From an uncultured Rickettsiales bacterium (GTDB lineage: Bacteria; Myxococcota_A; UBA796; UBA9615): a stretch of DNA of 64,000 nt. How positions within the stretch are numbered: position 1 is the first letter of the stretch; the number at the start of each line of letters is the position of its first letter. This document shows, in pieces, positions 5,081 to 8,246 of the stretch. The position numbers and the translations under genes were made by a program. The stretch spans positions 8,458-72,457 of the forward strand of contig CAYFOA010000009.1 of NCBI GenBank assembly GCA_964344575.1, read 5' to 3'. The notes beneath the pieces were generated by a model. That model worked only from the letters and a program-made list of their open reading frames with translations, had not been told where the DNA came from and made no database searches.

Positions 5081-6088
5081 TGGCCGACCACGCAGCCACG
5101 AAGATCCTCGGCAGCGGGTTCTACGTCCCGCCCACCGTGGTCACCAACGACGACCTCGCGAAGCGGTTCGACACGTCCGACGAGTGGATCCAGCAGCGCT
5201 CCGGCATCCAGGAGCGGCGCTACTCCACCCCCGAGGACACGCCCGCGGCGATGGGCGAGAAGGCGGCGCGGGCGGCGATCGCGGACGCCGGGCTGGAGGT
5301 GTCGGACATCGACACCATCCTCGTCGCGAGCCTCTCGCCGGACCACGACTTCCCCGGCACCGCCTGCTTCGTCCAGGAGCGGTTGGGTCTCCCCGGCACC
5401 GCCTGCATGGACATCCGGAACCAGTGCACGGGGCTGCTGTACAGCCTCAGCACGGCGGACGCCTTCATCCGCGTGGGGCAGAGCAAGCACGTGCTCGTCA
5501 TCGGCACCGAGGTCCACTCCACGGGGCTCGACTTCAGCGACGCCGGCCGGGACGTGACGGTGCTCTTCGGCGACGGCGCGGCGGCGATGGTGGTCGGCCC
5601 CACGGACGACCCCACGAAGGGCTTCCTCGGCCACTGCCTCCACGCCGACGGCAGCGGCGCCAAGCAGCTCTGGCTCCCCGCCCCGGGCAGCTCGTACTTC
5701 CCCCACCGGGCGCCGCCGGCGATGTACGAGGACCGGAGCATGTACCCGCAGATGAACGGCCGCGCGGTCTTCAAGTTCGCCTGCACGAAGCTGCCCGAGG
5801 TCATCGGCGAGGTCCCTCCACAAGACCGGCTACTCGCTCGACGACATCGACGTCCTCGTCCCCCACCAGGCGAACATGCGGATCAACGAGATGGTGGCCA
5901 AGGCGGTCGGCTTCCCGCAGGACAAGGTCGTCCACAACATCCAGAAGTACGGCAACACGACGGCCGCCTCGATCGGCATCGCGTTCCACGAGGCGAAGGA
6001 GGACGGGCGCATCGCGGACGGCTCCCTCGTCATGCTCGCGGCGTTCGGCAGCGGGTTCACCTGGGCGGCCTCGCTGGTCCGGGTCTAG
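5080..6088 (+). pseudogene. fabH: 3-oxoacyl-ACP synthase III (FabH/KAS III), frameshifted as written
   Basis: The N-terminal two thirds ([17 protein letters not shown]...CMDIRNQCTGLLYSL...) read in frame 1 from an ATG that overlaps the gyrB TGA. The C-terminal part (LHKTGYSLDDIDVLVPHQANMRINEMV...GSGFTWAASLVRV*) reads in frame 2. The shift falls at a CCC run at 5814-5816 (gag gtc cct cca), and one extra C explains it. This could be a sequencing error or a true pseudogene. Confidence 0.8.
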
Positions 6089-7020
6089 GAAGGGTCGACG
6101 TCATCTCCCTCGACATCGCCGACAAGCGCGTCGTCTTCGTCACCGGCAAGGGGGGCACGGGGAAGACCGCCATCTGCGTGGGGCTGGCGCGGACGCTGGC
6201 CCGTCGGGGGAGGCGCGTCCTGATCCTGGAGATCGACGCGCCGCGGCCCAACCTGCCGAGCTACTTCGGCGGCAAGTCGACGTACGACCCGCGCGTCCTC
6301 GCGCCGCGGATCGAGGGCGCCAACCTCGACTTCGCCAACTGCCTCCGGAGCTACGTGGAGTCCGTCGTCCCGGTGAAGCGCGTCGTCGGCGTCGTGCTGC
6401 GGAACAAGGTCGTGAAGATCTTCCTCGGCGCGACCCCCGGCGCCCGGGAGCTGGTGCTCTTGTCGCGCATCTGGGAGCACAGCTTCGACCCCCGGTGGGA
6501 CCACATCGTCGTGGACCTGCCCGCGTCCGGGCACGCCGTCGCGCTGTTCAAGTGCCCGAGCCTCGCCCAGAAGACGTTCGCCCGCGGCCCGGTGTTCATC
6601 CGCGCGGGCGAGGTCAAGGAGCGGTTCAGCGACCCCAAGGTGTGCACGCTGCTCTTCGCGTCGCTCCCCGGGGAGATGCCGATCAACGAGACGATCGAGA
6701 CCCGCCAGCAGCTGATGGGCCTGGGGCTCCCCCCGCTGGGCGGGTTCCTCCTCAACCGCTACCCCAACGAGCTCTTCACGGCGAAGGACAACGAGCTGCT
6801 GGACACCCTCGTCGCCGCGGACGACGCCCCGCCCCAGGTGGCGCGCGCCGCGGAGGCGGCGTGGGTGGTGCGGCGCGAGCAGCGGATCGCGTCGGACGGG
6901 CTGGAGCGCCTCAACGAGGAGTTCGGCGAGGACGCGGCGTTCACGCTCCCGGTGGTGCCGGGGACGCACGACCAGGTGGCGGAGTCGTTCTCGCTCGTGT
7001 TCGGGGTGTTCGTCGCATGA
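6061..7020 (+). CDS. ArsA/Get3-family P-loop ATPase, first of a split tandem pair (start uncertain, possibly CTG)
   Basis: P-loop GKGGTGKT, and a DLPASGH motif that corresponds to the ArsA DTAPTGH signature. There is no ATG/GTG/TTG in frame between the fabH stop and the P-loop. The only candidate is CTG at 6061, overlapping the fabH 3' end. Confidence 0.75.
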   Translation: MGGLAGPGLGRVDVISLDIADKRVVFVTGKGGTGKTAICVGLARTLARRGRRVLILEIDAPRPNLPSYFGGKSTYDPRVLAPRIEGANLDFANCLRSYVESVVPVKRVVGVVLRNKVVKIFLGATPGARELVLLSRIWEHSFDPRWDHIVVDLPASGHAVALFKCPSLAQKTFARGPVFIRAGEVKERFSDPKVCTLLFASLPGEMPINETIETRQQLMGLGLPPLGGFLLNRYPNELFTAKDNELLDTLVAADDAPPQVARAAEAAWVVRREQRIASDGLERLNEEFGEDAAFTLPVVPGTHDQVAESFSLVFGVFVA

Positions 7021-8242
7021 CCGCGCCCGTCCGCCACCAGGGCCTCACCGATCCGCAGAGCGTCCTCCGCGACGTCGTCCGGAACCGCGGCCTCCTCATC
7101 GCGGTCGGCAGCGGCGGGGTGGGGAAGACGACGACGGCGGCGGCGATCGGGATCCAGGCGGCGATCGAGGGACGTCGCGTCTGCGTCGTCACCATCGACC
7201 CGGCCCGTCGGCTCGCGAACTCGCTCGGCCTGGAGGCGTTGGGGAACGACGAGCGGCAGATCCCCGTCGAGAAGTTCGCCGAGTACGGCATCGAGCCGAA
7301 GGGGACGCTGCACGCGATGATGCTCGACACGCGGACGACGTTCGACGAGCTCATCCGGGACGTCTCCCCCGACGAGGAGACCCGCGACCGCATCCTCGAC
7401 AACCGCGTCTACATGCACCTGTCCGACACGCTGTCGGCGTCGCACGACTACATGGCGTCGGAGAAGCTGTACGACCTCCACCACAGCGGCCGCTACGACC
7501 TCGTCGTCCTCGACACGCCGCCGATGAAGAACGCGATCGACTTCCTCGAGGCGTCGGGCCGGCTGTCGCGGTTCCTCGACGACCGGATCGTGGGCTGGTT
7601 CCTCAAGCCGCACGAGGGCGAGCGGCGCTTCGGGCTGTCGCTCCTGCAGGCGCCGGGGACGATCGTCTACAAGCTCCTCGGCAACGTCTTCGGGACCGAC
7701 TTCCTCGACGAGATCGCCGAGTTCTTCCTCGCCTTCAAGGACCTCCTGACGGGCTTCAAGGAGCGCGCCGACGCGGTCTCGGCGCTGCTGCGGGACCCCG
7801 CGATCACGAAGTTCGTCATCGTCTGCACGCCGCAGAGCACGTCCATGGAGGAGGCCCGGTTCTTCCACAGCCAGCTCGAGGAGCGGCGGATGCCGGGCGG
7901 GTACTTCATCGTCAACCGCGTCGGTCGCTACGGCGACTGCACGCGGGACGAGGCGACGAACCGCTACCTCGACGACGACGACCGCGGCTTCATGCGGCGG
8001 ACGCTGGACGCGGTCGCCTCGGAGAAGAAGGTCCGGACGTTCATCTCGCGCCTCGAGGCGCACTTCGACCGTTCCGTGGCGATGGCGCGCGACGACGAGC
8101 ACGCGATCGCGGGGCTGCGGTCCTACGCGGGGAGCCGCGCGCAGGTCGCGACGGTCCCCCGCATGCCGGAAGACATCTACGACTTCGACGGCCTCCTGGC
8201 CATCGACCGACACCTCTTCGGAGAGCTGGAGCTGAGTGACGC

Positions 8243-8246
<4 letters not shown>
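7017..8246 (+). CDS. ArsA/Get3-family P-loop ATPase, second of the split pair
   Basis: P-loop GSGGVGKTT and a DTPP signature ([16 protein letters not shown]). The ATG overlaps the upstream stop (ATGA), and the stop overlaps the gyrA ATG (ATGA). Confidence 0.85.

Follow-up and report, generated by a model that had tools for sequence, protein, structure and literature searches.

The two adjacent ArsA/Get3-type reading frames located between gyrB and gyrA in the analysed DNA of an uncultured bacterium (64,000 nucleotides, hereafter the window) are, judging from sequence and predicted fold, distant relatives of BagA and BagB of Mycobacterium tuberculosis (Rv3679/Rv3680) and not a split arsenic pump, and the only unusual trait of the pair is its position inside the replication-gene cluster. 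The preferred explanation, which is regarded as probable, is that they encode the two subunits, A and B, of a heterodimeric P-loop ATPase of the BagAB type from the ArsA/Get3 branch of deviant-Walker-A NTPases, and that the genomic context is incidental; the position alone is no demonstration of a gyrase or arsenic role. BagAB is a widespread bacterial ATPase pair of the Get3/ArsA fold, whose crystal structure and stress phenotypes have been described for M. tuberculosis, and the current understanding of it is not overturned by the present findings.

Both genes, designated here bagA-like and bagB-like, are adjacent + strand reading frames lying in different frames; they are located inside the dnaN-recF-gyrB-gyrA array, a location described in an earlier note made from the sequence alone, and both products match Pfam ArsA_ATPase (PF02374; E 2.8e-20 for bagA-like and E 4.9e-24 for bagB-like). 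The coordinates of the locus are collected in Table 1. On the upstream side the conserved arrangement is anchored by gyrB, whose stop codon TGA (5078-5080) overlaps the ATG of fabH (5080-5082) by 1 nt in the sequence TGATG (5078-5082). The downstream gyrA is near-identical (99.5% aa) to that of the metagenome contig L001, on which the Pfam domains DNA_topoisoIV and DNA_gyraseA_C were found. In this position between gyrB and gyrA there is no room for an own promoter or terminator of the pair. In the promoter/terminator scan of positions 1-12000, which is uninformative at high GC, promoter-like sites were absent and the terminator-like sites, located on the opposite strand, were at background level, and the Rfam scan gave no match near the locus.

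Table 1. Features of the bagA-like/bagB-like locus in the window
Feature	Coordinates	Strand	Basis or remark
gyrB	2630..5080	+	ORF and translation; Pfam domains on the L001 copy, which is identical; tblastn synteny
fabH (KAS III), frameshifted	5080..6088	+	N-terminal part in the frame of 5080; C-terminal part 5819-6088 in the +1 frame
fabH frameshift site, CCC run with one extra C	5814..5816	+	site aligned across 12 loci
Shine-Dalgarno-like run GGAAGGG, AGGAAGGG	6087..6094	+	8 nt upstream of the proposed bagA-like ATC; read from sequence
bagA-like gene, 305 aa	6103..7020	+	proposed start is non-canonical ATC
ATGA overlap, bagA stop/bagB start	7017..7020	+	read from sequence
bagB-like gene, 409 aa	7017..8246	+	
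ATGA overlap, bagB stop/gyrA start	8243..8246	+	read from sequence
gyrA, downstream neighbour	8243..10840	+	ORF translation; tblastn synteny

The family assignment was obtained in the same sense by profile, sequence and fold comparison, each window protein matching the corresponding mycobacterial chain best. In the NCBIfam search the best matches were reciprocal: that of the bagA-like protein was BagA (NF053622, 74.7 bits; BagB 33.7 bits), and that of the bagB-like protein was BagB (NF053621, 288.6 bits, E 7e-86; BagA 46 bits). These scores do not reach the equivalog cut-offs of 400 bits for NF053622 and 521 bits for NF053621, and both proteins are therefore classed as distant family members rather than equivalogs of Rv3679 and Rv3680. 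The M. tuberculosis heterodimer Rv3679/Rv3680 ("bacterial Get3-like A and B"; PDB 6BS3/6BS4/6BS5) served as the reference. The best PDB sequence matches were 6bs3_A for the bagA-like protein (E 3e-14) and 6bs3_B for the bagB-like protein (E 1.7e-58, near full length), while the profile of the A family (A2) matched 6bs3_A with E 4.3e-37, the next matches (ArsA) being near 1e-25, and the profile of the B family (A3) matched 6bs3_B with E 9.2e-93, the next being 1e-33. The AF2 monomer models reached pLDDT 94.3 for bagA-like and 85.2 for bagB-like, and their top Foldseek matches were 6bs3_A (TM 0.79/0.74, about 21% identity in the structural alignment) and 6bs3_B (TM 0.71/0.81, E 3.6e-25, 34% identity), respectively, followed by Get3/TRC40 structures. 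The novelty of a split ArsA, implied by the earlier note, does not hold in view of these matches, since the BagA/BagB family is already described and structurally solved and two genes are its normal state.

The likeness to the mycobacterial pair is also found in gene organization and motifs. In both cases these are adjacent separate genes with A upstream of B, and both pairs are devoid of CxxC and of metalloid cysteines. The motifs quoted in the earlier note are present: the bagA-like P-loop GKGGTGKT (6145-6168) includes the signature Lys and is followed by switch I E-I-D and switch II DLPASGH (6514-6534), while the bagB-like P-loop GSGGVGKTT (7107-7133), without the signature Lys, is followed by switch I TIDPARR and switch II DTPP (7512-7523). 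The same P-loop asymmetry, GKGGTGK[TS] in A and G[AS]GGVGKTT in B, is seen in Rv3679 (GKGGTGKS) and Rv3680 (GAGGVGKTT). In families A2 and A3 the asymmetry of GKGGTGKT and GSGGVGKTT is invariant, the invariant columns being G15 K16 G17 G18 G20 K21, E43 and D45 in the A family and G31 S32 G33 G34 V35 G36 K37 T38 T39 and D61 P62 A63 in the B family. The motifs common to Rv3680 and the bagB-like protein include TIDPA(K/R)RLA, MMLD, YMAxEKL, DTPPxxNALDFL, and the C-terminal VPxxxxDVxDLxxL. The differences concern switch I, where Asp is retained in bagA-like (E-V-E in Rv3679), the non-canonical start codon of A, and the host, which belongs to uncultured marine bacteria labelled Myxococcota and thus carries a different phylum label. 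The gene context differs as well, being dnaN-recF-gyrB-fabH-...-gyrA near oriC, whereas the neighbours of the mycobacterial genes are whiB4 and ponA2. In the ArsA-homologue survey of Castillo and Saier 2010 an Actinobacteria-only cluster of proteins of 400-436 aa was described, which is probably BagB; gyrase linkage is not mentioned in that survey.

According to the preferred explanation of a BagAB-type ATPase, the overlap of bagA and bagB would enforce roughly 1:1 synthesis of the subunits, which, by analogy with 6BS3, may form a pseudo-symmetric ATP-sandwich dimer. In the deviant-Walker-A class the signature lysine reaches into the nucleotide site of the partner. Judged from motifs only, the dimer would be asymmetric, with the signature lysine (GKGG) in BagA and Ser (GSGG) in BagB, which retains the canonical switch I Asp (TIDPA); because of this distribution the BagB site is probably the fully competent catalytic site, the BagA site being probably regulatory. 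The nucleotide state could then open and close the helical subdomains, predicted to be large and amphipathic in BagB, around a client. The arrangement dnaA-dnaN-recF-gyrB-fabH-bagA-bagB-gyrA constitutes a lineage-specific operon organization of the uncultured marine bacteria labelled Myxococcota, and a place in this operon would give the pair a housekeeping function with constitutive co-expression.

A functional analogue of Get3/TRC40, i.e., an ATP-driven targeting factor by which C-terminal transmembrane segments (tail anchors) are shielded and brought to the membrane, is rather improbable. Get3-like targeting or a partition-like role had been put forward in the earlier note; the predicted fold is of the Get3 and not of the ParA type. 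The window pair shares with Get3/TRC40 (yeast 2WOJ/4XTR, archaeal 3ZQ6) the fold (TM ~0.65-0.7), the deviant Walker A with a predicted ATP-sandwich dimer, and the helical subdomain inserted in the NTPase core, and the best structural matches after 6BS3 are Get3 structures at the same TM level, including the cargo-bound 4XTR, 4XWO, and 8HAC. The predicted enlarged amphipathic helical subdomain of the bagB-like protein (approximately residues 170-260), rich in F, L, and M, could also be in line with such a function, but it was modelled at a low pLDDT of 47-79 over residues ~180-250. Get3 is a homodimer held by CxxC-bound zinc and works with Get1/2/4/5, whereas the window pair is a predicted heterodimer of diverged subunits without CxxC; this zinc motif is absent from both window proteins and was found in 0/47 A-family and 1/42 B-family members. 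Both proteins remained under the TIGR00345 (Get3) cut-off of 135 bits, with 55.3 bits for bagA-like and 95.8 bits for bagB-like, and no Get1/2/4/5-like partner genes were found near the locus. Hu et al. 2019 are reported to have noted marked differences from Get3 and to have seen no clear phenotype. In the text of the Get3d paper the mycobacterial Rv3679/6BS3 heterodimer is not mentioned.

That the pair is an arsenite/antimonite pump ATPase (ArsA) split into one gene for the A1 half and another for the A2 half is very unlikely, despite the Pfam ArsA_ATPase assignment of both proteins, the public annotations "ArsA family ATPase" or "anion-transporting ArsA/GET3 family ATPase", and the bagA-like DxPxxGH motif resembling DTAPTGH. 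The pair does have in common with E. coli R773 ArsA (PDB 1F48) the superfamily, the fold, the predicted pseudo-dimer logic with two non-equivalent nucleotide sites, and a DxxPxGH-like switch II, which is placed here in the A subunit. However, R773 ArsA is one fused A1-A2 polypeptide of ~580 aa with three metalloid-binding cysteines and with DTAPTGH in both halves, and it is encoded in ars operons with arsB and arsD, while the window pair consists of two ORFs with a conserved junction, possesses neither of these features, and is located outside such an operon. In BagB the sequence DTPPMKN stands where ArsA has DTAPTGH. The TIGR04291 (ArsA) cut-off of 650 was not reached (36.6 bits for bagA-like and 50.8 bits for bagB-like), and BagA and BagB, not ArsA, are the best matches. 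The metalloid cysteines of R773 ArsA (Cys113, Cys172, Cys422) were not found, their positions being judged by distance from the P-loop and not by a residue-level alignment with 1F48. The BagA family has no column with at least 30% Cys except one at 32%, which is Ala in the window protein, and the Cys columns of the BagB family are only at core-strand positions 29 and 270. In agreement with the earlier note, which had reported no arsenic-resistance genes nearby, the arsB/acr3/arsC/arsD/arsR families were not represented among the ORFs scanned to ~48 kb. The pair should not carry an arsenic-resistance annotation.

The possibility that one fused gene was broken in two by an indel error can be considered extremely unlikely. 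The window does hold indel frameshifts (in fabH and in a Ser/Thr kinase gene), but the 4-nt RTGA stop/start overlap, A then B, is kept in 21/21 related GTDB species loci, and because of this conservation in independent genomes the split is not a sequencing artefact, so that the description of separate genes given in the earlier note is upheld. In the crystal structure, too, the homologues from M. tuberculosis are two separate chains. The "fused" database entries P0257 and P0279 are calling artefacts; these two long entries were inspected as candidate natural A-B fusions and rejected, their linkers being out-of-frame and of low complexity. In most of 80 further metagenome loci, with 32-75% GC, bagA is immediately 5' of bagB. 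BagAB is now found as a conserved, translationally coupled unit in Myxococcota-labelled bacteria, outside Actinomycetota.

The order gyrB-X-bagA-bagB-gyrA was found in 21 species genomes, gyrA not being directly adjacent in all of them, and it is this order that the synteny comparison revealed in related genomes instead of an ordinary ars operon, a possibility raised in the earlier note. Across the marine, Myxococcota-labelled clade the arrangement dnaN-recF-gyrB-X-bagA-bagB is kept, while the range over which gyrA follows directly is narrower. Between gyrB and bagA lies a variable gene, which is fabH, MopE-like, or Extensin-like_C; fabH was rejected as an obligatory partner of the pair, since other genes replace it in L017-L023 and L027 and it is frameshifted in the window. 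The weight that had been put on the coupling into gyrA is not justified by this comparison, as the bagB/gyrA overlap is restricted to the window and the two relatives closest to it, L003 (-1) and L004 (-4), the spacing in other members being a gap of 2-306 nt or a 2.4-kb insertion (kinase genes in L011 and L015). The more distant relatives L024 and L027 have the gyrB linkage and no gyrA downstream. The gyrB linkage is retained to ~45% BagB identity and ~50% DnaN identity; in L026 and most metagenome loci there is no gyrB/gyrA linkage. In one clade the pair has long been locked into the dnaN-recF-gyrB(-gyrA) cluster, and this context may help functional hypotheses.

The deep gyrB linkage could reflect a functional tie, which the preferred explanation treats as incidental. 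A BagAB-type pair with a functional link to the replication or topology of the chromosome or to the cell cycle, for example in GyrA2B2 assembly or quality control or as a near-origin positioning ATPase, is considered unlikely. The location within dnaA-dnaN-recF-gyrB...gyrA, the overlapping stop and start codons into gyrA in the window genome, and the depth of the gyrB linkage in the clade, although the gene between gyrB and bagA gets replaced, are consistent with such a tie. A second context of this kind was observed in Solirubrobacterales (Actinomycetota), where in 27 metagenome loci, with BagB identity down to ~54%, bagAB is divergent beside a ParA-type ATPase and an FtsZ-family gene, and in 2 more distant loci it is beside a ParA-type ATPase alone. 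On the other hand, gene order near oriC is conservative for function-independent reasons, the adjacency and coupling to gyrA are not kept in the relatives with kinase insertions or without gyrA, and L026 and ~50 metagenome loci, among them every locus outside the two clades, have no replication or division neighbours. ParA/Soj/MinD proteins resemble the pair in the deviant Walker A with signature lysine (bagA-like) and in the origin-proximal site, like many parAB loci, but the pair has an extra helical subdomain typical of Get3/ArsA, to which the fold match also points. Matches to ParA/MinD were confined to the P-loop region (~40-60 residues), all under cut-offs, no ParA or MinD structure was among the 50 best structural matches listed for either AF2 model, and no ParB/MinE-type partner gene was found near the locus. 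The phenotypes of M. tuberculosis BagAB, as cited second-hand in PMC10597346, are glycerol and nitric-oxide sensitivity only and do not concern DNA topology. The broader proposal that BagAB-type ATPases act on the replication or cell-cycle machinery, in gyrase assembly or quality control or in an origin-proximal or division-site process, arises because of the two independent deep linkages, namely, the gyrB-X-bagAB clade and the Solirubrobacterales operon with the ParA-like and FtsZ-family genes; it is improbable, and if true it would provide the first mechanistic lead for this widespread pair.

The fabH gene upstream of the pair was matched by Pfam ACP_syn_III (E 7e-24, 5080-5817) and ACP_syn_III_C (E 3.6e-34, 5819-6085), as well as by NCBIfam PRK09352/TIGR00747, and it ends at the stop codon TAG (6086-6088). 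At its frameshift site the window reads GAG GTC C CTC CAC versus GAG GTN CTC in all relatives; the same extra C is present in the metagenome contigs L001 and L002 (99.9% identical, gap-free), and fabH is unbroken in the relatives L003-L016. Because of this +1 frameshift a 646-aa ORF extends from the fabH start into bagA-like. A second indel-type frameshift of the window is located in the Ser/Thr kinase gene, at a G7 run (20224-20230).

The start of the first gene had been placed in the earlier note at 6061, which is a CTG within the fabH 3' end, and of the ATGA overlaps reported there those between the two genes and between the second gene and gyrA were recovered, while that between fabH and the first gene was not, fabH ending at the TAG mentioned above. 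In the bagA-like frame there is no ATG, GTG or TTG from the fabH stop to the P-loop. Most likely, as read from the sequence, bagA-like initiates at ATC 6103, which in the start-codon comparison lines up with the start of the homologous gene in the relatives; in L003, L004, and L005 AAGGAG/GGAGG runs analogous to the Shine-Dalgarno-like run of the window are found upstream of ATC/ATT. Readthrough of the fabH stop codon into bagA was rejected, as fabH and bagA differ in reading frame in most relatives. In the Myxococcota-labelled clade the A subunit is often wrongly annotated in public records, either cut off behind the P-loop or joined to fabH, because of the apparent AUC or AUU start of its gene.

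The two ATPases encoded between gyrB and gyrA both match the Pfam family ArsA_ATPase, and their best NCBIfam matches are reciprocal: the first (bagA-like) protein scored 74.7 bits against BagA and 33.7 bits against BagB, while the second (bagB-like) scored 288.6 bits against BagB in a nearly full-length match (E 7e-86), versus 46 bits against BagA, yet all scores are below the equivalog cut-offs (400 for BagA and 521 for BagB). The best PDB sequence matches were the chains of 6BS3, entitled [quoted passage not shown], namely Rv3679 for the first protein (E 3e-14) and Rv3680 for the second (E 1.7e-58). 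Family profiles built from 47 (A) and 42 (B) homologues matched these chains with E 4.3e-37 and 9.2e-93, respectively, with ArsA/Get3 entries lagging behind by 12 to 60 orders of magnitude. AlphaFold2 models of both proteins were confident (pLDDT 94.3 for bagA-like and 85.2 for bagB-like) and had as top Foldseek matches 6bs3_A (TM 0.79) and 6bs3_B (E 3.6e-25, 34% identity), respectively, followed by Get3/TRC40 structures, with ArsA much lower. According to these sequence, profile, and fold matches the pair belongs to the BagA/BagB family, though only distantly; such pairs are normally encoded by two separate genes. This assignment supersedes the novel split ArsA of the earlier note.

Several other identities were considered and rejected. 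ArsA is disfavored by TIGR04291 scores of 36.6 and 50.8 bits, where the cut-off is 650, by the lack of conserved cysteines at possible metalloid positions in either family, and by switch II, which reads DTAPTGH in ArsA but DTPPMKN in the bagB-like protein. The earlier observation that arsenic-resistance genes are missing nearby was borne out, as no such family was found among the ORFs scanned out to ~48 kb, which include a TPR protein, aminotransferase, AbiEii, thioredoxin, PLP enzyme, Ser/Thr kinase, TonB-like protein, PriA, glutathione synthetase, OmpA, MFS transporter, and others. Canonical Get3 is rejected by scores below the TIGR00345 cut-off and by the absence of the CxxC zinc motif, and ParA/MinD matches were confined to the P-loop region. 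The two ORFs are also separate genes rather than halves of one gene split by a homopolymer error, since their 4-nt RTGA overlap is kept in 21 of 21 related species genomes.

The array from dnaN to gyrA (coordinates in the table), in a window of ~70% GC, is an origin-proximal replication cluster, because dnaA lies directly upstream of dnaN in L001, one of two near-identical metagenome contigs. The motifs quoted in the earlier note, GKGGTGKT and DLPASGH in the first ATPase and GSGGVGKTT and DTPP in the second, were all read in the sequence, as were the ATGA overlaps that join the ATPase genes to each other and the second of them to gyrA (8243-8246). An ATGA overlap had also been claimed between fabH and the first ATPase gene and is absent, fabH ending in TAG, while position 6061, taken there as the gene start, is a CTG within fabH. 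The junctions from gyrB to gyrA are overlapping or 14 nt long, too short to hold internal promoters or terminators; thus bagAB is most likely co-transcribed with gyrase in this genome. A consensus scan of 1-12000 returned no promoter-like site, and terminator-like sites at background level on the opposite strand, a result with little bearing on so GC-rich an organism. At the end of gyrA an acidic repetitive tail (10786-10840) differs in repeat copy number, giving a GyrA of 865 aa in the window and 850 aa in L001 and its companion contig L002, and the BLAST alignment breaks there.

Replication cluster of the window and an example of the ParA/FtsZ context
Feature	Position	Strand	Remark
dnaN	300-1421	+	
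recF	1602-2561	+	
gyrB	2630-5080	+	
fabH-type KAS III gene	5080-6088	+	stop TAG 6086-6088
bagA-like ATPase gene	6103-7020	+	305 aa, with the proposed AUC start
bagB-like ATPase gene	7017-8246	+	overlaps bagA-like at 7017-7020
gyrA	8243-10840	+	
Example of ParA/FtsZ context (locus L038)	5333-8051	minus	with 28 other metagenome loci within L032-L108, two of which (L098, L108) have the ParA-type ATPase only

The start of the bagA-like gene appears to be non-canonical in a subclade that includes the window. Direct reading of the window revealed no ATG, GTG, or TTG in its frame from the fabH stop to the P-loop, and 24 homologous loci were anchored on the P-loop for comparison of upstream codons. 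The codon lying 13-14 codons 5' of the P-loop is ATG in L006, L016-L020, and L023, GTG in L007 and L013, TTG in L022, ATT in L005, and ATC in the window (6103-6105), L003 (7084-7086), L004, L009, L011, and L015. In L003 and L015 the ATC closely follows an in-frame stop and a canonical start is absent ahead of the P-loop, so that non-canonical initiation is required there. Runs resembling a Shine-Dalgarno sequence lie 5' of the ATC or ATT codons (AAGGAG, GGAGG; GGAAGGG in the window). From this comparison we infer that AUC is the actual start of the bagA-like gene. This apparent non-canonical start would also account for the shortened annotation of many database bagA homologues as proteins of 266-282 aa without the P-loop (Walker A motif).

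The neighboring fabH carries, relative to all relatives, one extra C at 5814-5816 (GAG GTC C CTC CAC) and thereby a +1 frameshift. Its N-terminal frame is now in register with bagA with no stop between, resulting in a 646-aa ORF in which the FabH N-domain is followed by 91 out-of-frame residues and then by the BagA-like protein. This ORF stands in public data as one gene and is called as such a fusion in L001 and L002. A second frameshift, in the G7 homopolymer 20224-20230, breaks up the gene of a Ser/Thr protein kinase that has an AAA_16 domain: the N-lobe lies in the ORF 19799-20242 and the remainder in the 19267-23703 frame, which points to an assembly indel error or to real pseudogenization. 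An assembly or consensus error therefore keeps a small probability. The fabH insertion, however, recurs in L001 and L002, which come from different sequencing runs within one project and differ from the window by few SNPs. The fabH frameshift is therefore probably real in that population, and the intact C-terminal FabH domain in the +1 frame (Pfam E 3.6e-34) marks the lesion as recent.

A synteny scan with one genome per GTDB species yielded 21 loci, all from uncultured, mostly marine MAGs labeled as Myxococcota, Deltaproteobacteria, Proteobacteria, or (implausibly) Rickettsiales, with BagB identity to the window of 49-87%. The order gyrB, bagA-bagB, gyrA occurs in every one of them long enough to show it. 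Between gyrB and bagA, fabH is present in L003-L016, whereas L017-L023 have an unrelated gene in its place, either MopE-like or of no known family; insertions between fabH and bagA occur in L008, L012, and L016 (2488-6950, a kinase and a heavy-metal P-type ATPase), and a Ser/Thr kinase separates bagB from gyrA in L011 (10233-11369) and L015 (9280-10530), the insertions of L011, L015, and L016 being lineage-specific. The stop/start overlap of bagB with gyrA is restricted to the window, L003, and L004. Among more distant relatives (45-48% identity), L024 and L027 keep dnaN-recF-gyrB-(fabH or Extensin-like_C)-bagA-bagB without gyrA downstream, and in L026 bagAB is unlinked. Across another 80 metagenome loci, with identities of 34-52% and GC contents of 32-75%, bagA precedes bagB almost everywhere, and only the three closest (L031, L034, and L053) show gyrB linkage. 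Since the flanking genes vary over the compared loci, the invariant unit is bagA-bagB; its gyrB linkage is clade-specific but old, and the gyrA adjacency is narrower. The conserved position of the pair within the replication cluster is a modest curiosity, as is the non-canonical start codon; a full-text literature search returned no description of the gyrB-linked arrangement or of BagAB in bacteria labeled Myxococcota.

Clustering of neighbor ORFs over 105 loci revealed a second context. In 27 soil loci, with BagB identity among them down to ~54%, the genes for GGT (gamma-glutamyltranspeptidase), an FtsZ-family protein, and, nearest to bagA, a ParA-type ATPase are divergent from bagA-bagB, while an unknown ~600-aa protein, HxlR, and a T2SSE ATPase follow bagB on the opposite strand; in the more distant L098 and L108 only the ParA-type ATPase adjoins bagA. 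Close relatives of L038 are named Solirubrobacterales by NCBI. The gyrB linkage and the ParA/FtsZ context thus associate bagAB twice, independently, with genes of replication or division, and amount to a weak hint rather than evidence, because most other loci are without such neighbors. A functional tie of BagAB to gyrase or the cell cycle is quite improbable.

Of the mycobacterial homologues, MSMEG_6193 and MSMEG_6195 are identified as bagAB homologues of Rv3679 and Rv3680 in PMC10597346, which refers to Hu et al. 2019 (J Bacteriol 201:e00159-19) for Get3 homologues and structure, and also to Whitaker et al. Transposon mutants of Rv3679 and Rv3680 showed altered streptomycin and rifampicin survival (PMC12216072). 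The Actinobacteria-only cluster of ArsA homologues of 400-436 aa described by Castillo and Saier 2010 (PMC2963123) probably corresponds to BagB.

The conserved residues suggest how such a pair could work. In deviant-Walker-A dimers (NifH, MinD, Soj, Get3, and ArsA) one subunit's signature lysine is known to contact the nucleotide bound by the other. BagA-like retains this lysine as an invariant residue (K16), and BagA also has E43-x-D45 and D138-L-P-A-S-G-H. BagB-like has an invariant serine (S32) at that position, where Rv3680 has alanine, and BagB retains canonical switch I (T-I-D61-P-A) and switch II (D166-T-P-P). On the basis of K16 in BagA and of S32 and the canonical switches in BagB, an asymmetric ATP-sandwich heterodimer is proposed, in which BagB would provide the main catalytic site, completed in trans by BagA Lys16, and BagA a slower or regulatory one, by analogy with ArsA, whose A1 and A2 sites are likewise non-equivalent. 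Nucleotide-driven closure would bring together the helical subdomains, which may bind a putative client; that of BagB (residues 170-260) is enlarged, amphipathic, and F/L/M-rich, in a low-confidence region of the model. The conserved bagA/bagB overlap fits 1:1 production of the subunits.

Two further features were observed elsewhere in the window: a c-di-GMP-I riboswitch aptamer at 46661-46748 (+) (Rfam RF01051, 44.9 bits, E 1.5e-05), which lies 5' of an ORF without a Pfam match, and an AbiEii-type nucleotidyltransferase toxin at 16419-17376 (+) (Pfam E 2.2e-13); a small 108-aa ORF without a Pfam match comes before the toxin gene and possibly encodes its antitoxin.
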